The translations under genes were made by a program, and so were the position numbers. A stretch of 18,225 nt of DNA from Chlamydiia bacterium (GTDB lineage Bacteria > Chlamydiota > Chlamydiia > Chlamydiales > Parachlamydiaceae), in NCBI GenBank assembly GCA_038257035.1, contig JBBSJT010000044.1, forward strand, positions 1 to 18,225. Reading direction: 5' to 3'. The notes beneath the pieces were generated by a model. It ran no database searches. It was not told the origin of the DNA and worked only from the letters and a program-made list of their open reading frames with translations. Positions 1 through 15,322 of the stretch are shown piece by piece; within the stretch, counting starts at the first letter, position 1; each line of letters begins with the position of its first letter.

Positions 1-63
1 AACGACACGCACATATTCGACAAAATTTCTTTTTTGAACTTTAAAGTACAGTATCGGTTCCAT
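1..63 (-). CDS. 5' end of a hypothetical protein running off the window edge (MEPILYFKVQKRNFVEYVRVV...)
   Basis: ATG at 63-61 followed by 21 open codons to the window edge; co-oriented with and downstream of mgtE. Too short to identify. Confidence 0.35.
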   Translation of the reverse strand, partial: MEPILYFKVQKRNFVEYVRVV

Positions 64-227
64 AGTTATTTTATAAGATAAACACTGATTCTACTTCAAC
101 CTGAAAATTTTGTGCCTATCTGATTTGAATGAGAAGCAAGGGATTTGCGTGGTAAGAGTATCATAATCTCTAACAAGATAAAACTCTTATTTCTCTCATT
201 CTTCCTATGTGACCTCGGTGTTAAAAA

Positions 228-1703
228 CTATAAAGTAAATAAAAGCGTAACGATCCAAGCAACAAAGAAAAACATCAATGTGGACAATAAATCATTAAAA
301 GCCGTCACAATAGGACCTGATGCAACAGCTGGATCAATGCGAAGCCTTACAAAGAAGAAGGGTGACAATGTCCCTAAAATAGAAGCTGTCATACAAGCGG
401 CTAAAACGCCACCAAAAACCGTCACACCAAGTAATAAAGGTTCACCTTTTGCTTGTGTTAGACCAAACATACTGAGCAGATAAATGACCACTCCGCAAAT
501 AACCCCAAAAGTAAGGCCAATTAAAAGGCCCATTCCAATTTCTTTACGGATTGCTTCTCGTTTTGATCCTGGCGAAAGTTGCCCGGTTGACATTCCACGA
601 ACGAGGATGGTACTACACTGAATACCTACATTTCCACTCATTCCTGTAATTAAAGGAACAAAGAATGGAACGAAGGTAAACCAGTAACGATTATTAAAAT
701 GAGACATGGCAGTTGCTGTAGTAAGACCTGCTAGTAATGTGACAAAAAGCCAAGGCGCTCGTAAAAGAAAACGTGTGAGTACGGCCTCATATTCACCAAC
801 TTCCTCGGACGTACCCCCGATAGTTGCAATGGTTTCATCGGCAATGTCTCCGATCGCTTCCATAACATCTTCGTCTGTAATTACACCAATGAGACGATCT
901 TCTTTATCGACAACAGGAAGACCTGGCACCTTATAACGCTCAACAATATCGACAACCTCATCACGTGAAGCATCTGCTGTCACCTGATGCTGAACCGGCT
1001 GCATCACTTGCTTCAATAAAACATAATCGGGATTAACAATTAAAACACGGCCGGGAACGTAGCCGACAAGCTCGCCTTCATCATTTGTAACAAATACTCT
1101 GCGTGTTAAGTCAATGCCAGGATTGTCATGAATAACGGTGGAAACTTCACCAATTGTGGTGTTCATTTTGAAAGAGAAAAATTCGTTGGTCATCATTCGA
1201 CCGGCACTATGCCTGTCATGCTTTAATAGCTCACGAAGACGCATGGCTTTTTTAGGCTCAAGCAAATCTAAAAGACGTTTTAAACGGCGATTGGACAAAT
1301 CATCTAAAACAAAGACCGCCTCATCTGGTGGCATGCGCTCAACTAATTGCTTGATTTCATCGTCATTAATCTGGCGAAAAATAGCAGAGCGTGTTTTGTT
1401 GCCTGTATTAATCATAAAAATGATTTTGGCATTGACATCGGGGAGGTTATCGTAAACAACAACGCGAGAAGTTGGGGGAAGCCTTGTTACTGCATAAGCT
1501 AAGTCGATTGGGTCATATTCGCTTGCAATTTTGGCAACGTCATGCAAAATAATTTGGTAGGTTTGTTTATGAAAAGCATCTTCGAGTTTTTCATTCAATA
1601 CATCATCTAAAAGACTGGTTTTAGATTCCAAACTTGATACATGAGATTCATCGTCGTGATCATGATTTTCGCTGTCAATGTTTCTATCCAATACAAACCC
1701 CAT
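228..1703 (-). CDS. mgtE: Magnesium transporter MgtE
   Basis: 491 aa with MgtE N-domain, CBS pair (SAGRMMT...LPVVD...LIGVITDED) and TM domain with RAPWL, GMSGNVGIQ and DPAVASGPIVTAFND (Mg-binding Asp). N-terminal SKTSLLDD...YDPIDLAYAV resembles chlamydial MgtE. Confidence 0.96.
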   Translation of the reverse strand: MGFVLDRNIDSENHDHDDESHVSSLESKTSLLDDVLNEKLEDAFHKQTYQIILHDVAKIASEYDPIDLAYAVTRLPPTSRVVVYDNLPDVNAKIIFMINTGNKTRSAIFRQINDDEIKQLVERMPPDEAVFVLDDLSNRRLKRLLDLLEPKKAMRLRELLKHDRHSAGRMMTNEFFSFKMNTTIGEVSTVIHDNPGIDLTRRVFVTNDEGELVGYVPGRVLIVNPDYVLLKQVMQPVQHQVTADASRDEVVDIVERYKVPGLPVVDKEDRLIGVITDEDVMEAIGDIADETIATIGGTSEEVGEYEAVLTRFLLRAPWLFVTLLAGLTTATAMSHFNNRYWFTFVPFFVPLITGMSGNVGIQCSTILVRGMSTGQLSPGSKREAIRKEIGMGLLIGLTFGVICGVVIYLLSMFGLTQAKGEPLLLGVTVFGGVLAACMTASILGTLSPFFFVRLRIDPAVASGPIVTAFNDLLSTLMFFFVAWIVTLLFTL

Positions 1704-1903
1704 GCTTTTTTTAAATATTCTTACAAACTTTACAAAAGAAGTTTAACTTAGCAGGCTTTATTAATACAAGAATTTTCAAGGCTTGCCAAGACTTTTATTT
1801 CTTATGGTAAAAGTTTGTATTTTATGGATTTTATAGATAAGCATCAGATTAAAAATTTTAAGTTGATTTTCTCGCAGGTTCACAGCTTTATTGCTCTAGA
1901 GAA

Positions 1904-1922
1904 CCACGGGTTTCACCCGTGG
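1904..1922. repeat. GC-rich REP-like hairpin CCACGGGT-TTC-ACCCGTGG
   Basis: Perfect 8-bp stem with 3-nt loop in AT-rich intergenic DNA, 45 bp past the stop of the 396-aa gene; no good U-tract on either strand. Confidence 0.55.
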
Positions 1923-1966
1923 CAACATGAGGTGTCGCATTCGCACTTTAACAAATGGCTTTTTAC

Positions 1967-3157
1967 TTATTGCTCGAGAAGTTTATATGTTGGTTTGTTT
2001 GGAGCTTGGCAAATACCTATGGTAAGTAATGTCTTTAAAGCTATTTTCATTGGGTAATACTTAGCTGCATTCATTCCATGCTTATTACTCTTAGACATAA
2101 TATCACTCAGACTCGTCATATATTTGCCGTTTGAGCCATTATACTCCCCTAATAATCCTCCGCCACTTTCAAACCAATCATCCGGTCTATATATAGAACG
2201 TTGAAAAAAAATGGATATTCTTTTCTTATCATTTTCACTATATTTAATGGCAAGAAAAGGACGGCCCTTTGAAATTCCACGCATAATTGATTGGCCGGGT
2301 TCTATTTCAACTCTATCAATATAATTACCACTACCATCACCAGACCACTTTTGCGCATTATTAGGATCTAATACAAGAATTTTTAGATCATGAAACTTCG
2401 ATTTGCCACCGGATACTTCATAAATGAAATTTTCATTGTTTTTCATAAGTGGAAGGTTAGCTATTTTTAAAAGAATTTTTTCTTGTTTTTTCTTATATGA
2501 ATTATTGATGGCCTCTTTTTCTGTTTCTTTTTCTGCGATAAAATCTAAATATTGAGTATGAATCACGTCTTTTGAAAATTGTGAATTAATTTCTGATTGC
2601 TCTATTTCTAAAGCAGCTTTTTCTTTTTTTAATATAGATAAATTATTCAGTTGAGAAATTGCCTCGGATGCTGAATTACTTGCATAACATAATTTTACAA
2701 GTGAACTATTTGAATATCCTTCAGGATGGGCCATTGCTTGATTAAAAAGTCCCTGAACAATATATTTCCAATTTGGATTGATGCTGGAATTTTTTAAAAT
2801 TTCATCATCATTTTTTTTCAATAGTATGGAACATTGATCTATTTTCAAATTTTTGATTTTTAAAAGTTCACAATATTCAATGTCGAAAGGATTAAATTTA
2901 TTTTCAATAATTAAAAATTCATTTTTAAAGTTCTCATCCAAGGAATTCAATTTTTCTTGTAACTTCATGCCTTTTAAAACTAAATTTTCACCGTAGAGTC
3001 CAATTTTTTGATCGGTTTCTGCCTGAATAAAATTTTGGTAATAGGCTTTTTTTGTTAAATGTATCTTCGATGAAAAACCACAGTTTTGGAAAACGAGGTC
3101 CTGTATTTCTTTTGGAAAGTCTTCAAAGCTAGAAAAATTTAAAAAATTATTAATCAC
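1967..3157 (-). CDS. F-box-like protein (N-terminal F-box-like motif, central coiled coil, uncharacterised C-terminal domain); putative secreted effector
   Basis: 396 aa, GTG start with AGGAG RBS at 3167-3163. N-terminus FEDFPKEIQDLVF fits the F-box LPxEI pattern; K/E-rich helical middle; C-terminal GGKSKF...GQSIMRG...RPFLA...FFQR...W domain shared with the adjacent paralog. Confidence 0.75.
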   Translation of the reverse strand: MINNFLNFSSFEDFPKEIQDLVFQNCGFSSKIHLTKKAYYQNFIQAETDQKIGLYGENLVLKGMKLQEKLNSLDENFKNEFLIIENKFNPFDIEYCELLKIKNLKIDQCSILLKKNDDEILKNSSINPNWKYIVQGLFNQAMAHPEGYSNSSLVKLCYASNSASEAISQLNNLSILKKEKAALEIEQSEINSQFSKDVIHTQYLDFIAEKETEKEAINNSYKKKQEKILLKIANLPLMKNNENFIYEVSGGKSKFHDLKILVLDPNNAQKWSGDGSGNYIDRVEIEPGQSIMRGISKGRPFLAIKYSENDKKRISIFFQRSIYRPDDWFESGGGLLGEYNGSNGKYMTSLSDIMSKSNKHGMNAAKYYPMKIALKTLLTIGICQAPNKPTYKLLEQ

Positions 3158-3243
3158 ATAAACTCCTTTTTATTTTTAGTATCAATCATACTATAACAAA
3201 CAATTATTAAGGTATTATAAATTTTTTTGTTTTTAAATTTATG

Positions 3244-3463
3244 GGGGTCAGGCTTTACAATATTACAGTTTTTTTTCGCTACATTTTATATGTTTGGTGA
3301 ATTAAAAAACTGTCAAATTGTCAATCCAGACCCCAATGAGCTCTTGTTTTAAGCGTAAAAAACAATCCAAAGGTATTGTGGGGTCTGGCTTGACAGAATG
3401 ACAGTTTACTGTAATAAATGTATAGATATTAACGGAAACTGTAATTCTGTAAAGCCTGACCCC
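3244..3463. repeat. Four copies of a 28-bp motif GGGGTC(A/T)GG(C/A)TT(T/G)ACANNNT(T/G)ACAGTTT arranged as two inverted pairs (REPIN/MITE-like)
   Basis: Copies at 3244-3271(+), 3307-3334(-), 3380-3407(+) and 3436-3463(-), read directly from the sequence. Confidence 0.85.
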
Positions 3464-3476
3464 ATAATAAAATATT

Positions 3477-4468
3477 TTAACTATATTGTGGGCTGTGGTC
3501 TTCGACAATGAGCTGATAGGATGAATTTATTTTATGAAAATAGCCTTTTGTAATAAGTTGCTTTAAATCTTGGACTATTCGTTCTTCAAGATTTACAACA
3601 TTATCATAACTACCATATTCAAATAATTGATGCCCTGTCCCGGAAACTTTCCATTCTTTATAATGATCGTTATTGCGGTAATAAAAGGCAACTTTTCGGG
3701 TAGCAGAATTGCCTGTGCTAAAACAAAAAGCAATAAAAGGCCTATGAGCAAATACCCCACGCATTACGGATTGCCCTTTTTCAAGTTTGGTTATCTTTGA
3801 ATAATAGGAACAGTTCGCAGGAATATCTAGAATTTTTAGGGCATGAAACTTATCTTTGCCTCCAACAATATCGAAGATTCTATTTTCATTAAATTTCAGT
3901 TCAAAAAGATCTTTTACTTTATATTTCATGCTTTCAAGAGTGCTGCGTAATTTAGCCTCTAAAGCGAATTTTTCTTTTAGTTTTATGTCTGCACCATTCC
4001 ATAATAAACGATCTAGCGGTACTTTTTTCTCCTGTATCACTTCCCTTTCAATTTCAAGCTCTGATAAATTTTCAAGCTGTAAAGTAGCCTCCACGCTCAT
4101 ATAATTTAAGAGCGCTGCGGATTTGCCTTGTCTATTTGCAACAGCATTATAAAAGAGTGTTTGGACAGCATAATTCCAGTCCGGATCAACTGTAGAATAT
4201 TCAATTTCTTTAATTTGTATATTATTAAGATGAAATTCTTTTCTTTCTGCTAATTCCCTTTCAAAATTTTTTCAAGCTGCAAACATCTTTCGTAAAGTCC
4301 CATTTTTAAGTCCGTTTCTGCTTGCAGAGAGTTTAAATAATCTTTTCGGTAAACTTTTTTGGTAAAAAAAATGTTTGAATCTTGCCCCACTAGGTTTTTA
4401 AAAATCTCTGTTTGGATTTCTTTTGGGAGTTTCTCAAAGGAATCAATTCTCAAAAAATTAGCAATCAT
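3477..4468 (-). pseudogene. Frameshifted paralog of the 1967-3157 F-box-like gene (72-aa and 207-aa ORFs are one gene of about 330 aa)
   Basis: The 72-aa ORF matches the neighbour's N-terminus (FEKLPKEIQTEIF...QAETDLKMGLY). The -1 frame is open from about 4270 (RELAERK...VDPDWNYAVQTLFYNAVA, compare INPNWKYIVQGLFNQAMA) into the 207-aa ORF. One extra A in the A6 run at 4272-4267 restores the frame. Confidence 0.8.
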
Positions 4469-4571
4469 GTTCTAACCTATTACTTTTGTTTTATTTTCTT
4501 ATAAAAAAGCTAAAGTTTATAATATAACAATCAATTGGAGATATTTTTTGATTTCCAAAGCAAGAAATAAA

Positions 4572-4601
4572 TTGATTTCTTTTTAGATATCATGCTATCC
4601 T
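4572..4601 (+). promoter_or_regulatory. Putative sigma70/sigma66 promoter of typA
   Basis: TTGATT-N18-TATCCT with a TG extended -10 motif, 45 bp upstream of the ATG. Confidence 0.35.
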
Positions 4602-4646
4602 TGCTATTATCTATCAACATTAAACAAGAAGTTAAAGAACAATATC

Positions 4647-6476
4647 ATGTCAACAACACCAGATAAAATTCGCAATATTGCGATCATTGCCCACATTGAC
4701 CATGGCAAAACAACTCTAGTTGATGCCCTGCTTAACCAATCCCATGTTTTTCGTGAAAATGAAGTCGTTGGAACATGCGTTATGGACTCAGGCGATCAAG
4801 AAAAAGAGCGCGGGATTACTATCACTGCTAAAATTACTTCAGTGCCTTACCGCGATTATAAAATTAATATTGTCGATACTCCCGGTCACGCAGACTTTTC
4901 AGGTGAAGTAGAACGTATTTTAGGTACTGTTAATTCCGTCCTACTCCTAGTTGACGCCTCTGAGGGGCCAATGCCTCAAACACGCTTTGTTTTATCAAAA
5001 TCCTTGAAAATGGGCTTAAATCCAATTGTTGTCCTAAACAAAGTTGATCGCCCTCATGCAAACCCTGATCGCGTTCTTGACCAAACATTCGACCTATTCA
5101 CAGAGCTTGGCGCAACTGATGAACAACTTAATTTCCGTTATTGCTATGCGTCAGGCCTTGCAGGTTTTGCAAAACAGCATTTAGATGATGTATCCACAGA
5201 TATGGCTCCTCTATTCGAACTGATCTTAACAGCAGTTCCTGCTCCTAAAGGTGATCTTGACAAGCCATTCCTAATGCATGCGTCAAGCATTTTTTATGAT
5301 GATTATGTTGGACGTCAAGCATCAGGCAGAATCCTAGAAGGAAAAGTTAAAAAAGGACAACAAGTCATCCATATCGATCAAGATGGCAAACAAAATAAGT
5401 GCACGATCGTTAAGATTCAAGGCTTTCTTGGAATTCAAAAAATCGAGATGGATGAAGCATCTGTTGGCGATATCGTAATTCTTTCAGGCGTACCTGAAGT
5501 TTCAATTGGAGACACACTATGCGATCCATCAAACATTGTACGTTTACCAAGCATCCATATTGATGAGCCTACAGTTTCTGTTGACTTTACGGTTAATAAT
5601 AGCCCGTTTGTTGGAAAAAGTGGTAAACACGTGACAATGAATAAATTGCGCGATCGTTTAGCAAAAGAGCAGCGTGCAAATATTTCGTTACGTATTACTC
5701 TCGATGATATCGAACAAGATAGAGTTACTGTTGCAGGTCGTGGCGAATTGCACCTTTCCGTTTTAATGGAAACGATGCGTCGCGAAGGCTATGAGTTTAG
5801 CGTTTCAAAACCTAAAGTATTGATCAAAGAAATTGATGGCGTAAAACATGAGCCTTTAGAGCGCGTTTACGTTGAAGTTCCAGAAGAATATTCAGGTGGC
5901 GTCATTGCAGAATTGTCTAAACGTCGTGGTGAAATGCAACATTTGGATACAGATGAGCATAAGATTACACGTATTGAATTCTTAATGCCTACTCGTGGCT
6001 TAATGGGTTACAGAAATGAATTTCTTACAGAAACACGCGGTCTTGGAATTTTAACTTCCCTTTTTGATTCTTACACACCATGGAAAGGAGTTATTCCTGG
6101 ACGTGCTCGTGGCGTACTTATCTCTATTTGCCTTGGCAAAACAACAGGCTACTCTCTATTTAATCTACAAGATCGTGGAGTATTGTTTGTTGGACCGGGA
6201 GAAGATGTTTACGAAGGCATGGTTGTTGGGGAAAATAGCCGCGATAACGATTTGATCGTCAACGTTGTAAAAGGTAAGCAATTAACAAACGTTCGTGCTT
6301 CAGGAACTGATGAAAACGTCGTTCTTACACCTGCAAGACGCTTTACGCTTGAACAAGCTATCGATTACATCCAAGATGATGAATTGATCGAAATTACACC
6401 TGATGCGATCCGAATGAGAAAACGCTTTTTGACAGAGCAAGAGCGCAAAAGCTCAGACCGTAGCAAAAAGAGTTAG
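4647..6476 (+). CDS. typA: Translational GTPase TypA/BipA
   Basis: 609 aa; IRNIAIIAHIDHGKTTLVD, EKERGITI, DTPGHADF, NKVD, GRGELHL, and the BipA-specific C-terminus KQLTNVRASGTDE...DDELIEITPDAIRMRK. Confidence 0.98.
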   Translation: MSTTPDKIRNIAIIAHIDHGKTTLVDALLNQSHVFRENEVVGTCVMDSGDQEKERGITITAKITSVPYRDYKINIVDTPGHADFSGEVERILGTVNSVLLLVDASEGPMPQTRFVLSKSLKMGLNPIVVLNKVDRPHANPDRVLDQTFDLFTELGATDEQLNFRYCYASGLAGFAKQHLDDVSTDMAPLFELILTAVPAPKGDLDKPFLMHASSIFYDDYVGRQASGRILEGKVKKGQQVIHIDQDGKQNKCTIVKIQGFLGIQKIEMDEASVGDIVILSGVPEVSIGDTLCDPSNIVRLPSIHIDEPTVSVDFTVNNSPFVGKSGKHVTMNKLRDRLAKEQRANISLRITLDDIEQDRVTVAGRGELHLSVLMETMRREGYEFSVSKPKVLIKEIDGVKHEPLERVYVEVPEEYSGGVIAELSKRRGEMQHLDTDEHKITRIEFLMPTRGLMGYRNEFLTETRGLGILTSLFDSYTPWKGVIPGRARGVLISICLGKTTGYSLFNLQDRGVLFVGPGEDVYEGMVVGENSRDNDLIVNVVKGKQLTNVRASGTDENVVLTPARRFTLEQAIDYIQDDELIEITPDAIRMRKRFLTEQERKSSDRSKKS

Positions 6477-6483
6477 AACTTCT

Positions 6484-6519
6484 AAAAAACAAAGGAGTGC
6501 AACATCTGCACCCCTTTGT
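6484..6519 (-). terminator. Intrinsic terminator on the minus strand (hairpin A)
   Basis: 13-bp stem 6489-6501/6507-6519. The single mismatch becomes G-U only on the minus strand and is followed there by a T-run; homologous to the 9056-9088 hairpin. Confidence 0.7.
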
Positions 6520-6531
6520 AAATTTTTTGGT

Positions 6532-6588
6532 AAAGAGCCGTGTAATGGACAGAAAATTATCTGTCTCCATTACACGGCTCTTTTTTTT
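6532..6588 (+). terminator. Intrinsic terminator of typA (hairpin B)
   Basis: 18-bp perfect stem AAAGAGCCGTGTAATGGA/TCCATTACACGGCTCTTT running into T8, 56 bp after the typA stop. Confidence 0.85.
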
Positions 6589-6679
6589 AGTTATACGTAG
6601 TAAATTTGGTGACATTCCCCTATTCAATTAAGCTACCGTTCTATTCAACAAATTTAGTTATTAAGATTTACATAATCGT

Positions 6680-6709
6680 ATTATACTATTAAAATAATAT
6701 AAGTGACAA
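6680..6709 (-). promoter_or_regulatory. Orphan sigma70/sigma66-type promoter (TTGTCA-N18-TATAAT), copy of the promoter at 10062-10091
   Basis: Consensus -10 and near-consensus -35; 21-bp block 6668-6688 is identical to 10050-10070. Confidence 0.6.
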
Positions 6710-6769
6710 CAATATTAATAACAGTTTAAATATTTTTTACAGTAAATTGCAAATAACGTAAAATTCCTT

Positions 6770-8194
6770 TTAGCCCTTGATGACGAGTGCCGGTTTTAGC
6801 TTTGCAACCATTTTGGCAAGTTGCGCATCTTGACAAGCCATGACCACGCTATCTACATCCTTGTAAGCATCAGGCATTTCCTCTGAAATGGTGCCCTTTG
6901 AAGCCGCCATCACTGTAACACCTTGGGATTTCATATAGGCTACGGTATCTCTTCCTTGCCATGCTTCCATGGATTTATGCCTTCCCATGGCACGTCCTGC
7001 TCCATGGCAGCAGCTACACCAAGTGAGTGGATTGCCTTGTCCAACCATCAGGTGACTTGCTCGTCCCATGTCACCGGGTACAAGTACCGGTTGACCTGTA
7101 ACTTTAAATAAAGGGGATAATTCTTCTGCCCCGGGACCCAAAGCGCGCGTTGCCCCTTTGCGATGTACTAAAACTTTTTTAGTTTTACCATCAACTTGAT
7201 GTTTTTCAAATTTTGCAATATTGTGGCAAACATCATATAAAAGTCTAATTTCCTCAGGCTTTACACCTAACACTTCTTTAAAGCCCATTCTCACTTCGTG
7301 TAAAATGCGTTGACGGTTGTTAAAGGCGTAATTAGCTGCTGCTGCCATTGCTTTAAAGTATTTTTTTCCTGCATCGCTATTTATGGGAGCTGCTATTAAT
7401 TGTTTATCGGGAAGATCTTTTCCATATCCCATTTTTATAAATTCATTTAAAGTGTCCTGACAAACTTGATGTCCAAATCCTCTTGATCCTGAATGTATCA
7501 AGACATAAGTTTGCCCCTTTTCAACGTCCCATGAAGCTGCCGTTTCAGGTAAATAAAGATGCGAAATTTCGCCGATCTCAATGAAATGATTACCTGATCC
7601 AATTGTTCCAAGCTGATTTATACCTCGCTCAAGAGCATAGTTTGAGCAAGCCTCGCTATCGGCACCTTTAATTATTCCATAGCTTTCTGTAAATTCAAGA
7701 TCAATCTCAAACCCAAAACCATTTTCAATTGACCAGCGACTCCCCTGCTCTAACAGTTTTTTATAATCAGCCTCATTCAATTTTTTGGATTTATATCCAC
7801 CACCAACCCCTGAAGGCACTCTAATAAAAATAAAGTTTAATAATTTTTGCAAATCAGACTTTTTAAAATCCTTAAAAGCTCTTGGCACAATTGCTAAACG
7901 CACGCCACAATTAATGTCATAACCAACACCGCCCGGACTTATAACTCCATACTCAGCATCCATGGCGGCAACGCCCCCAATTGGAAATCCATAGCCCCAA
8001 TGAATATCGGGCATGGCAATACTATGGCCTATGATCCCCTGCAAAAATGCTACATTTCTCACCTGTTCTAACGGCTTTTCAAAATCTTTTGAAGATATTA
8101 ACTCATCATTTGCAATAATTAATCCAGGGACGCGCATCCCCTCTTCTTTTGGCAAAAGGTATGTTGAAGGAGCTATTTTATTTAAATTATACAT
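6770..8194 (-). CDS. rtcB: RNA ligase RtcB (3'-phosphate/2',3'-cyclic phosphate to 5'-OH), long archaeal/eukaryote-like type
   Basis: Catalytic motifs all present: MPDIHWGYGFPIGG, GYDINCG, GSGNHF, HSGSRG, HNIA, HRKGAT, PGDMG, CHGAGR (guanylylated His), EEMPDAYKDV, terminal KG. ATG at 8194 preferred over TTG at 8200 (GGAG at 8208-8205). Confidence 0.97.
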   Translation of the reverse strand: MYNLNKIAPSTYLLPKEEGMRVPGLIIANDELISSKDFEKPLEQVRNVAFLQGIIGHSIAMPDIHWGYGFPIGGVAAMDAEYGVISPGGVGYDINCGVRLAIVPRAFKDFKKSDLQKLLNFIFIRVPSGVGGGYKSKKLNEADYKKLLEQGSRWSIENGFGFEIDLEFTESYGIIKGADSEACSNYALERGINQLGTIGSGNHFIEIGEISHLYLPETAASWDVEKGQTYVLIHSGSRGFGHQVCQDTLNEFIKMGYGKDLPDKQLIAAPINSDAGKKYFKAMAAAANYAFNNRQRILHEVRMGFKEVLGVKPEEIRLLYDVCHNIAKFEKHQVDGKTKKVLVHRKGATRALGPGAEELSPLFKVTGQPVLVPGDMGRASHLMVGQGNPLTWCSCCHGAGRAMGRHKSMEAWQGRDTVAYMKSQGVTVMAASKGTISEEMPDAYKDVDSVVMACQDAQLAKMVAKLKPALVIKG

Positions 8195-9005
8195 CGACAA
8201 TCATCTCCCATTGCAAAATTTGATCATTTTTTTTAAGATCCCCATGAAAGGAAACAGCTTTAAAAGGGCAACCAATAGTTCCATCGGCAAGACATACAGC
8301 CTCATTGAGCAACATAATTAGATCATCAAGGTCTGAGGGTACCTTTTTTGGCAAAAAATCAAGTAATTCAGGAAATTTAAAACTTAAAGAAAGCCCTGCA
8401 TGCCGATAAAGCTGTTCAAGATTTTCTCCTTTAAGATTAAATGCAATATCTGCCGTATGTTCAATTTCAGTCCAAGGCATAGTGAGCGGCATGCTCCAAA
8501 GAGAGCGATAACGCAAATTTCCTATGCTTTCATAAAGATGAATTGAATCAAATACCACCGGAAGCTTTTGAAAGGAAGCCTCCCACTCATCATTTGAAAA
8601 GGGCTTGCGAGCAACAGTTACATGAGGCAACCAATTTTGATGCGTGTCGTCTGTGTCAAAGCCTTCATTTTTTAGCCATGTTATAAGCTCTTTTTGGCAT
8701 TTTTCCAAACGTATTGCATTTTCAAAAAAATCAACATGCCACGCGACCACATTTGGTTGATTTTTTGGCAAAAATAGCAACTGATCAAAAATAGCTGCAA
8801 GACCTGATGGAAAGTTAAATGAGGGAAATGTTTTGAGTAAGGGAATTAATTTTTCGAGATCGGCCTTTCCCAAAAAAGCAAGGGTTGCATGCAATTCATC
8901 CATTTGAATCAGTCTTCCGCTAGGATAATTGCTTGGCCAAGGAGCGTTGCTTTTAAGTCCAAAAAATAAGTTGTTAGCTGACTCTTGAATCATATTTTCA
9001 TACAT
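8187..9005 (-). CDS. Fusion of 2H phosphoesterase (ThpR/LigT-like RNA 2',3'-cyclic phosphodiesterase) and C-terminal archease domain
   Basis: N-part: LFFGL, LHATLAFLG, WLPHVTVAR (two HxT motifs), IHLYES...Y. C-part (8474-8187): WTEIEHTADIAFNLKGENLEQLY...KAVSFHG...WEMIVDV-stop, matching archease HTAD, KAVTYH and terminal DV. Start uncertain (TTG 9029, ATG 9005 or ATG 8993). Confidence 0.9.
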   Translation of the reverse strand: MYENMIQESANNLFFGLKSNAPWPSNYPSGRLIQMDELHATLAFLGKADLEKLIPLLKTFPSFNFPSGLAAIFDQLLFLPKNQPNVVAWHVDFFENAIRLEKCQKELITWLKNEGFDTDDTHQNWLPHVTVARKPFSNDEWEASFQKLPVVFDSIHLYESIGNLRYRSLWSMPLTMPWTEIEHTADIAFNLKGENLEQLYRHAGLSLSFKFPELLDFLPKKVPSDLDDLIMLLNEAVCLADGTIGCPFKAVSFHGDLKKNDQILQWEMIVDV

Positions 9006-9051
9006 ATTCGATATTATTTTGGCTGTCAACTTTAATTCAAAACAAAATAAG

Positions 9052-9088
9052 AAAAAATAAAGGAGTGGAACATCTCCACTCCTTTATT
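9052..9088 (-). terminator. Intrinsic terminator of the 289-aa gene (hairpin A')
   Basis: Perfect 14-bp stem AATAAAGGAGTGGA-acatc-TCCACTCCTTTATT with a T-run on the minus strand, 63 bp after the stop at 9152. Confidence 0.8.
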
Positions 9089-9151
9089 AAGTTATAATAC
9101 TTAGAGTTTAAACTCTCTAAAACAAGCCGCAGAGCCACCTTATGGTAATTT

Positions 9152-10021
9152 TTATGTCTTATAATTATCAAAAATAGTCATATCAACCCCGACTTTTTTG
9201 GCAATCTCTAGGGTTTCAGCAGTTGGTTTAGCGCCCAATTCTAATAATGTTATTATAGTGTCATTCGCCTGATTTTTTATTAATTCAATAACTTTCTTAG
9301 TAACGGTTTTATCTAGCATCTGCGTATTAACTCTTTCATACTTATTCTGGATTGCATAATTTAAATTATTGGTTGTTGGCTTATACCCAAATTCGGATAA
9401 AATTATCATTTTCCCGATTTCATCTTTTTTAATGGCGGTTTCAAAACTTTTTTCAGTAGCGTATGCACCTTTTTCCAATGTTTCTCTAAATGTATTATCA
9501 TCTTTAAACATAGTAATCATAGACAGTTCAATATAGAGTTGTTTATGTTTATTAGATAAAGGTACGAAGTCAAAATATAATTTAGGTTTTGGACCTTTAA
9601 AAGCATCAAAAAGATTAGCCAAATCTTCCTGTGGAAGAGTTAATAAGATTTGTTTTATTTCTGCTTTGACATTATTAAGCTTTTCTTTCATCTCATCAAA
9701 TGTAAGATTGGCCTTATATTCGTCTGAAGTCACAAGATGTGAGAGTGCTTCTTTTTGATCCTTATATTTTTCGGGAAGTTTATCTGCCAATGAGCGTCCA
9801 AAGCTTGCTACTTTCAGAAATTCTTGATTTTTGACGACATGGATGGTTTTTTCGTTCAAACTACTTGTTATCGAGGAAAGAGTGCTCGTGTCCTCATTAT
9901 TTAAGTAGGACATAATCTTTTCGTGAATTTCCGGTAGTAATTCCTTCTTGTGTAATGGCCCTTCTTTTATAGTGTTTGGGGTGGGTTGAATATTTGAATT
10001 TCCGCCGTTTATGCTTTGCAT
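9152..10021 (-). CDS. F-box-like protein with C-terminal ankyrin-like repeats; putative type III effector
   Basis: 289 aa, GAGGTG RBS. S/N/P/T-rich N-terminus; LLPEIHEKIMSYLN F-box-like motif; three repeats GAYATEKSFETAIK, GYKPTTNNLNYAIQ, GAKPTAETLEIAKK. Confidence 0.7.
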   Translation of the reverse strand: MQSINGGNSNIQPTPNTIKEGPLHKKELLPEIHEKIMSYLNNEDTSTLSSITSSLNEKTIHVVKNQEFLKVASFGRSLADKLPEKYKDQKEALSHLVTSDEYKANLTFDEMKEKLNNVKAEIKQILLTLPQEDLANLFDAFKGPKPKLYFDFVPLSNKHKQLYIELSMITMFKDDNTFRETLEKGAYATEKSFETAIKKDEIGKMIILSEFGYKPTTNNLNYAIQNKYERVNTQMLDKTVTKKVIELIKNQANDTIITLLELGAKPTAETLEIAKKVGVDMTIFDNYKT

Positions 10022-10061
10022 ACTACACCTCTGTTAAGTAATTAACTAATTACATAATCGT

Positions 10062-10091
10062 ATTATACTACTAAACTAAAATTAGTGACAA
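10062..10091 (-). promoter_or_regulatory. sigma70/sigma66-type promoter (TTGTCA-N18-TATAAT) of the 289-aa gene
   Basis: Consensus -10 about 40 bp upstream of the ATG; duplicated at 6680-6709. Confidence 0.7.
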
Positions 10092-10128
10092 TGTATTAAA
10101 TAGTTTGTAAATATTATTTACAATAAGG

Positions 10129-10241
10129 CGATTAGGGACAGTTCTTCATAAGTGCATAACTTTTAATCGAGGTTTGTGAGGTGTAAAGGTTAAGTCGTCG
10201 ATTAAAAAGTTATGCACTTATGCGAGAACCGTCCCCCAATC
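10129..10241. repeat. Long inverted repeat (42/44-bp arms, 27-nt spacer) with G(G/A)GGGAC(A/G)GTTCT-type ends; REP/MITE-like
   Basis: 10129-10170 pairs with 10198-10241; core CATAAGTGCATAACTTTT is perfect. Confidence 0.85.
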
Positions 10242-10333
10242 GTTATACCGCTCTTTTCGCATACGTATTAGAAAACGGGTTAAAGCCCGTTAAAAAAGGC
10301 TCAGGCTAAAGCCTAAGGTACAAAACACGGATG

Positions 10334-12472
10334 CTAAGGGTTTTTATCGGGTTTGTTGGAGAGGGCGGAAATAAAGTTACGGAATGCTTCCGTGTGTTTT
10401 ACGTTGGTTAACCATTCATCATGCATGATATCGTCTAATGGCGGCAGGGACCCGACAGCTTCTGCACGTTCCATGTAATGGATGGCAGATTTAACATTAT
10501 TATTGAGTGCGTAAAGGCATGCAAGATTGTAATAAGTGGGTAGTGAGCCTAAAGATAAGGCATGAAAAAATTTACCTTCGGCAAGCTCGTAAATTGATTT
10601 GGATTGTCCTGGAAGACAAGATTCATCGATAAGTTCTGCCTGATGTAATAGACATAGTCCCCAATCATTCCAAGCTACTTCATCCTCACGGTCTTCAGAA
10701 AGTAAAATTTCAAAATGCTCTGATGCTTTTTGTAAACATTCAAGATCAGAGACTGACTCACCAAGATGAGACAAGGCTAAAGCTAAATTGTATCTTGCGT
10801 GTACATAATCAGGATCAATTTTTACTACATTTGCCAAAATTTGAACCGCTTTCTCATAGCTATTTTGATCGCCGGTAAAATCTCCGTGCATATCGAGTGC
10901 GCATCCATAATTGTAAAGCCACTCCAAGTCAATTTCTTCGCCATCAGTGTTTTCACCCTGGCGCTTAATCAACTCTTCAAATTTCATTAAAGCAGAATCA
11001 AGATAATCCGGCTCTATAGTCATTTCAGCAAGACGCATCAGTCCTACAGCCCAGTCATTCCAAAACTGTAAAAAAACCTGACCTCCAAATTCGAGGACCT
11101 GTGAGCAATATCTAATAGATTTTTCAATCATCAATCGATCATTAAGCATGTCGCCGAGGGCAAAATTAGACATGGCAAGGCCATACCAAAGAAGAGGATC
11201 TGTTTGTGTTAGAGAAAGCCCCCACTGGAATTTTTCTATAGCGGACTTATAAAAATTTTGATCATTAAAATAGCGGCCGAGTTCGTTCAAGCAGATTCCA
11301 TATAAATACCAAATTTCAGCAGCTTCCGGATTTACTTCTAGACTGCGTACAAATTTTTCTTCGGCTTGCCTTAATAGATTAATTTCATCTGTATTAGCGC
11401 CAAGAAGCATTTCAGCCTCGCCCCAGCGGCTTAAAATTCCGGGATGATTAGGCTCAATTTTATCTGCTTGCATAAATTTTTCAAGGCTTTGCTCTAAATA
11501 AGAGATCTCTCGTTTTAATTTGCCCAAAGTGGCAAGAAGCTGTCCCCATTTTAACCAAACGACAGCATGATGAAATTCCGTTTTTTCTTCGTATTTGACA
11601 GCCCTTTCAAAAGATTCATTTGCCTTTTCAAAATAGTCAAGATCAATTGTAATTTCAAAAACACATTGATAGGCACATGCCAAGTTAAAATGACCTTGAA
11701 ATTGGTTTTCATTTGCTTTAATAGAATTGTTGTAGTGATCGATTGCTTCAAAAAAATACTCTTTTTTGCCAATTAAAAAGGCCATTTCGATGACCGCATC
11801 CCCATACACATTCCAAAAGCTTGATGTTTGCATCCCGCATTGACAGGCTTGCTTATACCAATCTAGAGCATAGCGAAAATCCATTGCCTCGCCAGACAAT
11901 TTACCCAAATAAAACCAGCTTTGTCCAAAATCACGATAAAATTCAGCTTTGCAATGAGTGTCATCAATAAGAGTCACTGCTTTTTCGTAATTTGAAATGG
12001 CATCTTGGAAAAAAGGCGCCTCTTCCAAAAGCATTCCTTGCTGAACCAGCACGCGGGCTAAAGAGTAAAGAGCATCAAATGTGTTGGGTTGAAGTTTTAA
12101 TGCTTCTTCAAAATATTTTTTGGCGTAAATAAGAATTTGTACGTTGTGAGGGTATTTTTCACATGACGCACCAAGAGAATAGATAACTTTATAGGAGTCT
12201 TTTGCAATCTTAAAACTTAACTCGAAGCTTGTCAAAAATTTATTATCTTTAGCTTTTAATTGATTAGTTCCAAGTCTTGCATAAAGCCTTCCAAGGATTT
12301 CTCGATCCTCAAAATCCATTGCTTCGGCAGCAGCAGTTGGATTGAAAAAGCTCAATTCCGATTCAAGTGAATCGTCAAAATTTTGAGCATTTTCATCAGC
12401 AGAATTTTCGCTTGCAATTTCACTAGCAACAATAGCTGCTAATTTTTTTTTTAGTTCTTCATTTTTATTCAT
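10334..12472 (-). CDS. Tetratricopeptide-repeat (TPR) protein
   Basis: 712 aa of tandem TPR-like helical repeats (AEIWYLYGICLNELG, HARYNLALALSHLG, TYYNLACLYAL). Confidence 0.88.
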   Translation of the reverse strand: MNKNEELKKKLAAIVASEIASENSADENAQNFDDSLESELSFFNPTAAAEAMDFEDREILGRLYARLGTNQLKAKDNKFLTSFELSFKIAKDSYKVIYSLGASCEKYPHNVQILIYAKKYFEEALKLQPNTFDALYSLARVLVQQGMLLEEAPFFQDAISNYEKAVTLIDDTHCKAEFYRDFGQSWFYLGKLSGEAMDFRYALDWYKQACQCGMQTSSFWNVYGDAVIEMAFLIGKKEYFFEAIDHYNNSIKANENQFQGHFNLACAYQCVFEITIDLDYFEKANESFERAVKYEEKTEFHHAVVWLKWGQLLATLGKLKREISYLEQSLEKFMQADKIEPNHPGILSRWGEAEMLLGANTDEINLLRQAEEKFVRSLEVNPEAAEIWYLYGICLNELGRYFNDQNFYKSAIEKFQWGLSLTQTDPLLWYGLAMSNFALGDMLNDRLMIEKSIRYCSQVLEFGGQVFLQFWNDWAVGLMRLAEMTIEPDYLDSALMKFEELIKRQGENTDGEEIDLEWLYNYGCALDMHGDFTGDQNSYEKAVQILANVVKIDPDYVHARYNLALALSHLGESVSDLECLQKASEHFEILLSEDREDEVAWNDWGLCLLHQAELIDESCLPGQSKSIYELAEGKFFHALSLGSLPTYYNLACLYALNNNVKSAIHYMERAEAVGSLPPLDDIMHDEWLTNVKHTEAFRNFISALSNKPDKNP

Positions 12473-12624
12473 AGTTACAAAGGTAATTTGTTAATCAATC
12501 TATCAATCATACTCTACTTTAATAAAATAACAAAGCAAAAAATATTTTTTTCACTACGAGCGTCTATAATATTTTTTCACCACCAAGCAGGCTTTTCCAC
12601 CACTTAGGAAGTTTTTTACCGCTG

Positions 12625-12842
12625 TGTAGGCCTTTTTTTACCGCGAAGAGCGCGAAGAAGCGCAGCTACGCTGCGGGAAGAAACGCGAAGATAGCGCGCT
12701 TAAGCGCGATTAAGGAAATTTAAACATTACTAAAAAAAATTTCATTTTCCTTCTTCTTCCGCAGCATAGCTGCGCGTCTTCGCGTTTCTTCCCGCAGCGT
12801 AGCTGCGCTTCTTCGCGCCCTTCGCGGTAAAAAAATCCCTAC
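12625..12842. repeat. GC-rich foldback element 1 (59-bp arms made of CGCGAAG units)
   Basis: 12633-12691 and 12777-12835 are reverse complements at 58/59 positions; internal mini-hairpins CGCAGC-tac-GCTGCG; AT-rich spacer. Confidence 0.92.
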
Positions 12843-12857
12843 GAACGGTATAAATTC

Positions 12858-14921
12858 TCAGAGTTTATGGATGGCCTCGATCATCGCCGGTAACTGGTTT
12901 ATAGGCGTTTGGCAGATACCTTCAAAACAAATATATAATGTTGTTTTCCCATCTATTGCAACAAGATCCTTAACAAAAGGAATAACTCTCAATAAATCTT
13001 TATCATCCTGCTGCTTCCAAATCAAGGCTTTGTGAGGTATAAAATGATGATAAATTTCATTTTTTAATTCATTTTCATAGTTTTTGTCTTCATTAAGCGC
13101 AATCACCAAAGTCGGAGCATGCTTGTCATAGTAGCGGTTTAAATTCATCATATGATATGAATATCCGGGGGGATAATTATCAATATATTTTTTTACTGCA
13201 GCAAAAATATCTTCTGCTTGTTCAATATAGGTGTCTTCATTCGTCAGCTGATAAAGTCTTAAAAGATTTTCGCAATGAATAGCATTTCCCGAGGGCTCTG
13301 AGCCATCTGAAAACTGGCATTTTCTTAAAATAAGATTGATGTCAGTTCCATCCGTTTCATAAAATGCGCCATCGGGCTCTTTAAAGCTTTCATCCAAAAT
13401 ATTTGTCATCTCAATAGCAAGCACAAGCCATTCGACCCCATAATCTGACTCGAACAAGCTTAAAAATGCGCGAATAAGACACGCATATTCACTAAGACTT
13501 GCATTAAAGCGGACTTCTCCGTCACGGAATCTGCGAAAGAGTTGCCCATCTTGCCACATATGATTTTTAATAAAATTTGCAGACTTTACAGCTGCATCTA
13601 AAAATTCCGGGCAATTAAGAGCATTTCCTGCCTCAACTAGAGTGTAAATCATTAATCCATTCCAAGCGACTAGTATTTTATCATCTTTAAAAGGATGTTC
13701 CCTATCTTGACGAACCGTAAAAAGAAGTTTTTTCTGTTCCTTGATTGTTTCAGCCAAAAATTGAACGTCTACATTATGTTTTTTTGCAAACTCATCTAAG
13801 TTTAGATGAGTGTGAAGAACATTTCTTCCCTCAAAATTGCCATCCTCTGTCATACCAAAGTACTCAATAAACAACTGACTTGTCTCATCGCCTAAAATGT
13901 TTATTATTTCATCGATTGTCCATGTGTAGAATCTTCCCTCATGTCCTTCAGAATCTGCATCTTCTGCAGAATAGAAACCACCGTTTTTTGAGCTCATTTC
14001 CCTTAATACGTAATCGAGAATTTCTTTGCAAATCTGCTTATGAAAAGGTTTTTGAGTGAGTTGCCAACATTCCAAATAGCTAAAAGCCATTATGGCATTG
14101 TCATAAAGCATTTTTTCAAAATGAGGAATTAGCCACTCCTCATCGATGCTATAACGTGAGAAACCACCTCCTAAGTGATCATAAATGCCGCCACGGTGAA
14201 TCATGTCAAGGGTGCGTTCAACTAAAAAACGGGCTCGGCTGTCTTTGCCTGTCAAGTAGTAGCGAAGCAAAAAATTTAATTGGTACCCGATCGGAAATTT
14301 AGGTGCCCCCTTAATCCCCCCAAAGATTGGATCAGCCATTTTAAATAAAAGGTCAACGGCATCTTCAATTTGTTCTTTTTCCGGAAATTCATCGCCTACA
14401 GGGTTTTGATTATTGGCAAAAATATCCACTATTTTTCTGGCCTGTTCAAGAACGTGCTCACGCTCTTCACTATCCCACATCTGTTTGATTTTCGGGATCA
14501 AATCTTTGAAGCCGACAAGGCCATGACGACCTTCGGGGGGCAAGTAAGTGGCTGCAAAAAAGGGCTCAAGATCTGGTGTAAGAATGACATTTAAAGGCCA
14601 ACCGGAAGCTCCTGACATCATCCCTTGAGCAAATTCCATATAAATTCCATCAATTTCGGGCAACTCTTCACGATCGACTTTGATGTTTACAAATGCATCG
14701 TTCATCATTTCTGCAATTTCCACATTTTCAAAGCACTCTTTTTCCATCACATGGCACCAGTGGCAAGTCGCATAACCAATGGAAAGAAAAATTGGTTTTT
14801 GACTATCTTTGGAGGCTTCAAACGCTTCCTGACCCCATGGGTACCAATCTACCGGATTATATGCATGCTGAAGCAAGTAGGGAGATTTTTCAAGATTCAA
14901 TCGGTTTGCTTTTTTTGCCAT
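12858..14921 (-). CDS. yyaL: Thioredoxin-domain protein, YyaL/DUF255/SSP411 (Spata20) family
   Basis: [88 protein letters not shown]. Confidence 0.94.
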
Positions 14922-14981
14922 AGTTTTGTACCTTTACGTGAAAAATTAGTTTGTACAAATTTTTTAAGAAGGTCAAGAGAC

Positions 14982-15269
14982 TTTTTTACCACGAAGAAAA
15001 ACTATCTAGCTTCTGTAGGCCTTTTTTACAGCGAAGACCGCGAAGGAAGACGCGAAGGCACGAGAAGAAGAGCAGCTTATGCTGCGAGAAAAAAATTACA
15101 CAACTACTAAAATGCAATAAAGAAATGTTATTATTGCCTCCTCTTTTCGCAGCGAAGCTTGCGCTTCTTCGCGCGCCTTCGCGTCTTTCTTCGCGGTCTT
15201 CGCGGTAAAAAAATCCACACTAGCTGTATAAACAAAAAATAAATATTAAAGGTTCTTCGTGGTAAAAAA
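14982..15269. repeat. GC-rich foldback element 2, nested inside a second related inverted repeat
   Basis: Inner arms about 15022-15090 and 15144-15213 (CGCGAAG units, several mismatches). Outer perfect 17-bp IR TTTTTTACCACGAAGAA at 14982-14998 and 15253-15269. Confidence 0.9.
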
Positions 15270-15322
15270 TTCCTTATGTTGTATAATCTTAAGTATCTAA
15301 CAATATAAGGGTTTAAGATTTA

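Follow-up and report, generated by a model that had tools for sequence, protein, structure and literature searches.

The present study concerns a gene pair on an 18,225-nucleotide stretch of DNA, hereafter the window, from a Chlamydiia bacterium of the Parachlamydiaceae (assembly GCA_038257035.1, contig JBBSJT010000044.1, positions 1-18,225; window coordinates are used throughout). The first gene encodes a single protein in which a ThpR-like 2H phosphoesterase domain is followed by a compact archease domain, and its last codons contain the start of the second gene, which encodes the RNA ligase RtcB (Table 1). We think it probable that the pair is a translationally coupled RNA-repair unit, in which the archease half activates RtcB and the 2H half has a separate, ThpR-type role. 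This reading builds on folds, motifs, conservation, the coupling of the two genes and the way in which the halves have proved separable in evolution, all of them directly in evidence, and from these we infer that the fusion protein binds and activates RtcB.

A phosphoesterase and an archease in one reading frame

A sequence-only reading of the window had placed a two-HxT 2H domain and an archease domain in one open reading frame (ORF) of 280 amino acids. The motifs, an AlphaFold2 model and structure matches found with VIA-align bear out this assignment, and everything that was described is present, although the start and the orientation needed correction. Specifically, the 280-residue frame (8187..9029, minus strand) appears in the ORF list with an alternative TTG start at 9029, whereas the start used in gene calls and in all relatives is the ATG at 9005, for a protein of 272 residues, and both genes of the pair lie on the minus strand. 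Residues are numbered here from the Met at 9005, such that H39, H128 and W178 are H47, H136 and W186 of the 280-residue ORF.

The AlphaFold2 model of the fusion, built on 37 relatives, has a predicted local distance difference test (pLDDT) score of 93.9 and a predicted template modeling (pTM) score of 0.90. When it was compared with 48,161 solved chains by VIA-align, residues 6-195 matched the cyclic phosphodiesterase (CPDase) of Deinococcus radiodurans (5h7f; Z 15.6, root-mean-square deviation [rmsd] 3.1, 166 residues aligned), and the same half matched Escherichia coli ThpR (4qak) with Z 14.6. Foldseek found LigT (5ldm) at E 2e-8 and, with the whole model as query, listed only 2H chains and no archease match. 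In sequence, the two catalytic motifs are of the extended ThpR type, HxTxxF and HxTxxR; H39, T41, F44, H128, T130 and R133 are invariant in 37/37 aligned sequences, and both extended motifs are found in all 120 of the best relatives (best 120 of 759). E. coli ThpR is described as being defined by these same extended motifs, the Phe stacking on the base and the Arg being essential, and as producing a 2′-phosphate from RNA 2′,3′-cyclic phosphate (RNA>p) (PMC4201822). The domain scores 20.1 bits against the curated cut-off of 23.3 for LigT_PEase and 44.6 bits (E 1.4e-11) against 65.7 for TIGR02258, both below the mark, and by curated score it falls outside the latter family; as TIGR02258 is an equivalog model, the domain is a divergent relative for which equal function cannot be assumed. 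From its motifs, the 2H half would be an active RNA 2′,3′-cyclic phosphodiesterase of the ThpR subfamily, which is the best-supported element of our reading after the archease role, and its products would most likely be 2′-phosphate ends. The sequence-only reading had pointed out that such a product would oppose RtcB, in keeping with the 2′-PO4 reported for ThpR (PMC4201822).

The structure search also bears on a different view of this half, namely that it generates ends rather than opening them. As a Usb1-like enzyme or a 2′,5′-phosphodiesterase, it would trim 3′-OH ends or cut 2′-5′ links and so leave cyclic-phosphate ends that RtcB can seal. Such an activity would be chemically sensible beside RtcB, and Usb1 (Z 12.6) as well as AKAP18 and viral 2′,5′-phosphodiesterases (Z 10-15) are among the VIA-align matches. 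However, the best matches in both sequence and structure are CPDases of the ThpR/LigT type, and the ThpR-specific Phe and Arg are invariant; we regard an end generator as very unlikely.

The C-terminal part, on whose likeness to the archease fold the sequence-only reading had staked its claim, does match that fold. Residues 175/183-272 match TM1083 (1j5u) with Z 9.5 (rmsd 2.9, 86 aligned), human Archease (ZBTB8OS; 8odo_B) with Z 8.2 (94 aligned) and MTH1598 (1jw3) with Z 7.8 (93 aligned), while the next unrelated chain on this part reaches Z 4.9. Structure comparison was needed to name the halves, and the archease was found by VIA-align, a search independent of Foldseek. In a profile search of PDB sequences, the archease hits lie at E 0.0016 to 0.9 only; phmmer, queried with the C-terminal part, gives E 0.29 and 0.99, with IEHTADIAF aligned to IEHTADIAY of TM1083 and to YEHTADIGI of the Pyrococcus horikoshii archease. 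The predicted division into an N-terminal LigT/2H part and a C-terminal archease part holds, the Pfam scores lying below their cut-offs and the identities being confirmed by structure; on the strength of the model, the fold identity of both halves is settled. The expectation that automatic annotation would miss the archease half was partly right: by our reading, many of the 120 best relatives carry one precomputed Pfam label, but 22 of them carry both and one JGI (Joint Genome Institute) name gives both domains, and within the fusion’s cluster in the Atlas 49% of members carry the PF01951 (Archease) label.

The residues with which archease acts are retained. In human Archease, D51, D178 and the carboxylate of I179 bind the third Mn, Mn(C), K156 binds the phosphate, and the substitutions D51A and K156A are reported to abolish guanylylation in the human system (10.1101/2023.03.30.534986). 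The counterparts of D51, K156, D178 and I179-COOH are D186, K249, D271 and V272-COOH, which lie at the same distances from the ends; from K249 to the C-terminus there are 23 residues, equal to the spacing from K156 in the 179-residue human protein. H183, A185, D186, D241, K249, H254, D271 and V272 are invariant in 37/37 sequences, and all 80 loci that were fetched end in (V/I)-D-V-stop, a fixed Asp-Val end that fits the terminal carboxylate as a metal ligand. Because the free C-terminus forms part of the metal site, an archease could be fused to another domain only through its N-terminus, which would explain the domain order.

Distribution of the fusion and its coupling to rtcB

A word-indexed search returned 759 relatives, the best 120 of which were examined and are all 258-298 amino acids long. 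An exhaustive profile search yielded 238 clusters (50% identity) with E values of 1e-30 or better and 293 when the limit was relaxed to 1e-10, so that the family is sharply bounded, and a scan with family-specific patterns located a relative in 147 species genomes. In the Atlas, the fusion has one cluster of its own, with 254 members and commonest in the Chlamydiota, beyond which only single-domain LigT clusters follow at 0.78; the archease part alone finds plain archease clusters at 0.75-0.76. The architecture search that had been suggested from the sequence, extended to a sample of Chlamydiota genomes, found the fusion in 132 of 300 genomes and 83 of 165 genera. The 80 loci that were kept have titles naming chlamydial groups, giving just “bacterium” or “uncultured bacterium” or, in certain metagenome bins, naming Verrucomicrobia. 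As far as we have seen, the fusion is confined to the Chlamydiota. RtcB was matched in 129 of 301 Chlamydiota genomes; when we read the two tables together, the fusion and RtcB coincide in 122 genomes, while 10 have the fusion only and 7 RtcB only. No match to the fusion was seen in the single further genome that the sample holds from the window’s own genus, nor in any of 29 genomes of a small-genome Chlamydiota family (f4), in which RtcB was likewise found in 0 of 30; the latter absence suggests that RNA repair was shed with genome reduction. This recurrence also disposes of an artefact, that is, a frameshift, an assembly error or a wrong gene call joining two genes. The same uninterrupted ORF recurs across those 147 species genomes, some 238 clusters (50% identity) and the 132 of 300 sampled genomes, nothing was found in favor of an artefactual join, and we consider it ruled out, with practically no chance of being correct.

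The two genes are coupled. As the sequence-only reading had noted, the end of the fusion gene (GAT GTA TAA) overlaps the rtcB ATG by 8 nt. Its proposed check for adjacency was likewise informative: the locus counts rest on 80 fetched loci, and in 76 of them rtcB lies directly downstream on the same strand. Three of the remaining four loci end 12-43 nt past the fusion stop. The fourth (L072, on contig C69 of genome G127, the same genome as L102) carries an intact fusion that ends in VDV with the embedded ATG, followed by a 25-codon rtcB remnant and a stop, which looks like a recent loss of the ligase that preceded any decay of the archease tip. The ATG is embedded in the Asp-Val codons in 80/80 loci. 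Moreover, the penultimate Asp codon is GAT in all 80, against 594 GAT to 260 GAC (70% GAT) elsewhere in the same ORFs, a comparison that the relatedness of the genomes weakens as a statistical test. The invariable GAT with its embedded ATG indicates selection on the start codon that lies within the final two codons of the fusion. On the window itself, the gene beyond rtcB is convergent, and a terminator-like hairpin stands 3′ of the gene upstream of the fusion; the fusion–rtcB pair therefore looks like a two-gene unit with the hairpin as its 5′ limit. A promoter scan ahead of the fusion gene gave weak consensus matches only (9/12).

The ligase itself is of the long archaeal/Thermus type. Among solved chains it is closest to TTHA1785 of Thermus thermophilus (E 3e-137), followed by the RtcB of P. 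horikoshii (E 8e-129), and the Pfam RtcB match, which spans model positions 1-426, places the protein in the RtcB family. D93, C96, N202, H203, H234, H324 and H397 are invariant in 28/28 chlamydial sequences; by position, we take these residues to have the metal and guanylylation roles of their equivalents in the P. horikoshii enzyme. RtcB of T. thermophilus is reported to turn over only with Archease (PMC4604427). The assembly, which is 95.8% complete, encodes one RtcB, and the fusion is both its only archease match and its only match to TIGR02258 or PF13563 (ThpR-like). In agreement with the earlier remark that RtcA and RtcR are absent from the window, RtcA (PF01137) and RtcR (PF06956) have no match there or in the whole assembly, the E. 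coli controls being positive, and Tpt1/KptA was not found in the assembly either.

The archease tip, the ligase and the role of the phosphoesterase half

The complex of the fusion with RtcB, whose modeling had been proposed, was predicted with both alignments and three controls. The interface score ipSAE was 0.78, 0.78 and 0.79, against 0.00 for the best control; the ipSAE mark is reached by 116 of 157 solved complexes and by 2 of 215 mismatched pairs. The partners have pLDDT values of at least 87, and at least 89% of contacts are shared between runs. In the prediction, the dock is made through the archease tip: the confident interface comprises residues 183-187, 227-254 (including K249-250 and 252-254) and 271-272 of the fusion and residues 65-68, 92, 130-132, 186-190, 239-253, 264-267 and 401-407 of RtcB, and it contains no 2H residue. 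The predicted arrangement resembles that of the solved human complex 8ODO and indicates that the 2H domain need not clash with the ligase, which is not proof of binding.

Naturally decayed copies separate the two halves. Copies were chosen for partial matches or because their genomes lack RtcB, a biased pick from few lineages; among them are 15, from at least five genera, with no rtcB in the fetched flanks, which mostly cover ~3-4.6 kilobases per side (two reach a contig end sooner on one side). The 2H site persists in these copies, with HxTxx[R/K] in 15/15 and HxTxxF in 13/15, whereas the archease tip is lost, with H-x-A-D and the Asp-Val end in 0/15 (one copy ends Asp-Leu). Four aligned copies of the type found in genome G045 carry D241→Asn, K249→Met and H254→Gln. 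The converse is seen beside an intact, overlapping rtcB, where one locus (L098) has lost the second half of the 2H domain through an in-frame deletion and another (L097) has a shrunken N-terminal part without the second 2H motif, and both keep EHTAD, KAVSFH and Asp-Val; a third locus (L096) has a frameshifted fusion copy beside an intact rtcB. Thus, the tip is kept only in the company of rtcB and the 2H site persists whether rtcB is there or not, which argues that the archease serves RtcB and that the 2H enzyme has a role of its own.

These data weigh on the proposal made from the sequence alone that the two proteins constitute an end-healing and sealing machine, in which the 2H half opens RNA>p to a 3′-phosphate, or clears dead ends, and hands the product to the tethered RtcB. 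The conservation of the fusion and of the 8-nt overlap would fit such integration, and a 2′-phosphate product looks costly where neither RtcA nor Tpt1 was found to rescue the ends. In addition, regiochemistry varies in the superfamily, yeast Usb1 being a 2H enzyme that leaves a 3′-phosphate. However, the motifs are exactly those of ThpR, which makes 2′-PO4 (PMC4201822), and RtcB is described as itself opening the cyclic phosphate to a 3′-phosphate (cited in PMC3973293). Archease and RNA are also reported to exclude each other on RTCB (10.1101/2023.03.30.534986), such that no tether would exist while RNA is bound. Finally, the predicted interface is confined to the tip, and in two lineages archease and rtcB are retained beside a 2H half that no longer works. 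With the halves separable in natural variants, the machine is not supported as it was stated, and we judge it improbable.

In the reading that we favor, the archease tip (D186, K249, D271 and the free carboxylate of V272) would enter the RtcB active site and supply the third Mn site and the phosphate contact for loading of guanosine monophosphate (GMP) onto the ligase, as in the human RTCB–Archease complex; this recharging of RtcB by archease would be the best-supported element of the mechanism. The 2H activity would be dispensable for it. If the 2H half does produce 2′-phosphates, it would compete with RtcB for cyclic-phosphate ends as a gatekeeper, like CNP against RTCB in mammals, and its dose would be tied 1:1 to that of the activator, with coupling to the ligase as well. 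This product and the gatekeeper role are a guess to which we give somewhat less than an even chance. The two activities might also be linked in a push-pull controller, in which the archease tip recharges RtcB and the 2H site converts late cyclic-phosphate ends into unjoinable 2′-phosphates. Since archease and RNA are mutually exclusive on RtcB, the 2H site would be brought at each recharge step to ends that have just been released, which would provide kinetic proofreading against wrong ligations, with no RtcA to reverse it; we consider such a controller fairly unlikely.

It is also conceivable that the join has no bearing on repair at all, adjacent thpR and archease genes having merged once in an early chlamydial ancestor and the 2H enzyme being unrelated to RtcB. 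The independent decay of the halves would be expected from such a neutral accident, and E. coli ThpR is described as stand-alone and dispensable (PMC4201822). Set against this, the join has lasted across at least 83 genera in a single domain order, the model is rigid and confident (pTM 0.90), and both enzymes act on the same group, the 2′,3′-cyclic phosphate of RNA, and we regard an accident as quite improbable.

Several points weigh against the coupled unit with separate roles as we have described it. The Pfam Archease model (PF01951), matched at positions 1-30 of its 136 only, gives 23.0 bits where its cut-off is 25, and the domain has ~98 residues where solved prokaryotic archeases have 136-143, so that ~40 residues of the canonical fold are missing; it is for this score and this length that we name it a compact, divergent archease domain. 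The score of the predicted complex may be model memory, since the similar complex 8ODO has already been solved. The 15 uncoupled copies represent a handful of events, not 15 independent ones. As neither RtcA nor Tpt1/KptA was found, a 2′-phosphate would be a dead end, and fusing an activator to an antagonist looks wasteful, which leaves room for another regiochemistry. Lastly, among full-length representatives at 50% identity (n = 124), the first 2H motif is present in 117, the second in 120, H-x-A-D in 93 and the Asp-Val end in 96; that the fusion is kept in most of the family (96/124 Asp-Val ends) argues for a benefit of the joint form that separate roles leave unexplained.

Surroundings of the locus and relation to known repair systems

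The identified neighbors of the pair encode housekeeping proteins with no link to RNA repair (Table 1). The ORF directly upstream of the fusion (9152-10021, minus strand, 289 amino acids), which terminates in a strong terminator-like hairpin, and two further minus-strand ORFs (1967-3157, 396 amino acids; 3477-4100, 207 amino acids) match no Pfam family at the thresholds used. No tRNA genes, which might have pointed to substrates, were found in the window.

Table 1. Features of the fusion–rtcB locus and its neighbors in the window, followed by short RtcB genes in other Chlamydiota genomes (genome:contig:position)
Feature	Position	Strand	Remarks
Fusion gene, ThpR-like 2H phosphoesterase plus compact archease	8187..9005 including TAA; coding 8190-9005	minus	272 amino acids; called protein P0001
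2H phosphoesterase domain	8481..8978	minus	residues ~10-175; structure matches and sub-cut-off TIGR02258
First catalytic motif, HATLAF (H39-F44)	8874..8891	minus	ThpR-type HxTxxF; read from sequence
Second catalytic motif, HVTVAR (H128-R133)	8607..8624	minus	ThpR-type HxTxxR; read from sequence
Compact archease domain	8190..8480	minus	residues 176-272, ~98 amino acids; fold matches
EHTAD motif (E182-D186)	8448..8462	minus	D186, counterpart of metal-binding D51 of human Archease
KAVSFH motif (K249-H254)	8244..8261	minus	K249, counterpart of phosphate-binding K156 of human Archease
Terminal Asp-Val-stop, GAT GTA TAA	8195-8187	minus	contains rtcB ATG (8194-8192); 8-nt overlap, read from sequence
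rtcB	6770..8194	minus	474 amino acids plus stop; long archaeal/Thermus type; Pfam RtcB 508 bits
Terminator-like hairpin 3′ of upstream gene	9056..9088	minus	15-pair stem, then T run; consensus match only
MgtE transporter	231-1703	minus	family match; housekeeping
BipA/TypA GTPase	4647-6476	plus	family match; housekeeping
Tetratricopeptide repeat (TPR) protein	10334-12472	minus	family match; housekeeping
DUF255 thioredoxin-like protein	12858-14921	minus	family match; housekeeping
UvrA	15323-18223	plus	family match; housekeeping
Short RtcB	G060:C1:1249486-1250616		
Short RtcB	G053:C1:1353068-1354198		
Short RtcB	G045:C1:984277-985407		
Short RtcB	G032:C1:301424-302554		
Short RtcB	G071:C16:8277-9407		
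Short RtcB	G220:C4:484981-486111		

Other forms of rtcB occur in the phylum. Several Chlamydiota genomes have a second, short RtcB (open frames of 411-460 amino acids) away from the fusion; in three of them (G045, G032 and G071) the short protein is the sole RtcB, and the archease tip of the fusion is decayed there. At one locus (L099:2223-4221; G067:C19), a divergent rtcB of 482 amino acids has no fusion upstream and is accompanied by a small helix-turn-helix (HTH) ORF (HigA-like; minus strand, 3732-4022) and, cut off by the end of the contig, a short toxin-like ORF, both named from reading their translations; if the names hold, an RNA ligase would stand beside a possible RNA-cutting toxin-antitoxin pair. 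At another (L100:3436-5327; G296:C28), a 160-residue ORF unlike the fusion precedes an rtcB of 453 amino acids, and another partner may have replaced the fusion. Two rtcB genes have one in-frame stop each (L038:4776-6200 and G289:C192:1115-2410) and may be pseudogenes or carry sequencing errors.

The fusion is a variant of the archease–RtcB operon and not a new kind of system. In the “tRNA splicing operon” known from archaea and from some bacteria, such as P. horikoshii and T. thermophilus (Desai et al. 2014, PMC3973293; 2015, PMC4604427), an archease gene likewise adjoins a long-type RtcB and metal carboxylates lie at the tip, and the chlamydial RtcB is closest to the archease-dependent T. 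thermophilus enzyme; the chlamydial archease differs in having ~98 rather than ~140 residues, in standing behind a 2H domain and in holding the rtcB start within its last two codons. The human RTCB–Archease complex (8ODO/8ODP; 10.1101/2023.03.30.534986 = PMC10944509) shares the counterparts of D51, K156, D178 and the C-terminal carboxylate, and the predicted interface joins the same tip to the same region of the RtcB active site, whereas human Archease is a free protein of 179 residues with no added enzyme and RTCB is part of a five-subunit complex. E. coli ThpR/LigT (Remus et al. 2014, PMC4201822; 4QAK, 5LDI) has the same 2H fold and both extended motifs. In contrast to the chlamydial domain, which scores below the TIGR02258 cut-off and bears a C-terminal archease, it is a stand-alone protein of 176 residues with no known partner or pathway.

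A functional parallel may lie in mammals, where a 2H cyclic phosphodiesterase, CNP, and the ligase RTCB are described as sharing RNA>p ends as substrates but affecting ligation in opposite directions, CNP lowering and RTCA raising RTCB-dependent splicing (Unlu et al. 2018, via PMC13247085 and PMC10630183). There, however, the proteins are separate and RTCA closes the cycle, whereas the chlamydial 2H domain is fused to the activator of the ligase and RtcA was not found. The E. coli rtcBA operon with RtcR is also an RtcB-centered RNA-repair unit, but it combines a short, archease-independent RtcB with the cyclase RtcA and the sigma-54 activator RtcR, neither of which was found in the chlamydial genome. 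In line with the earlier supposition that no protein of such architecture has been characterized, none turned up in the literature searched, and no paper on a 2H–archease fusion was found there either; the search left out the RtcB-neighborhood survey of Burroughs and Aravind 2016 (Nucleic Acids Research, NAR). We put forward here an explanation of the domain order from the terminal carboxylate, codon-usage evidence on the hidden start, the predicted interface restricted to the tip, and the reciprocal decay of the two halves.

Enzymes of the ThpR/LigT type are widespread but have no established cellular role, on which those who studied the E. coli enzyme could “only speculate” (PMC4201822). The covalent link to the activator of RtcB, conserved as it is, hints, at the level of the genome, that ThpR and RtcB have the same broken RNA ends as their targets. 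The compact pair would also provide an expressible test system for the question of whether RtcB is aided or held back by a cyclic phosphodiesterase, and its archease domain of 98 residues defines the smallest set of archease elements kept by selection. Within the phylum, the fusion–rtcB unit is common in amoeba-associated and environmental chlamydiae.

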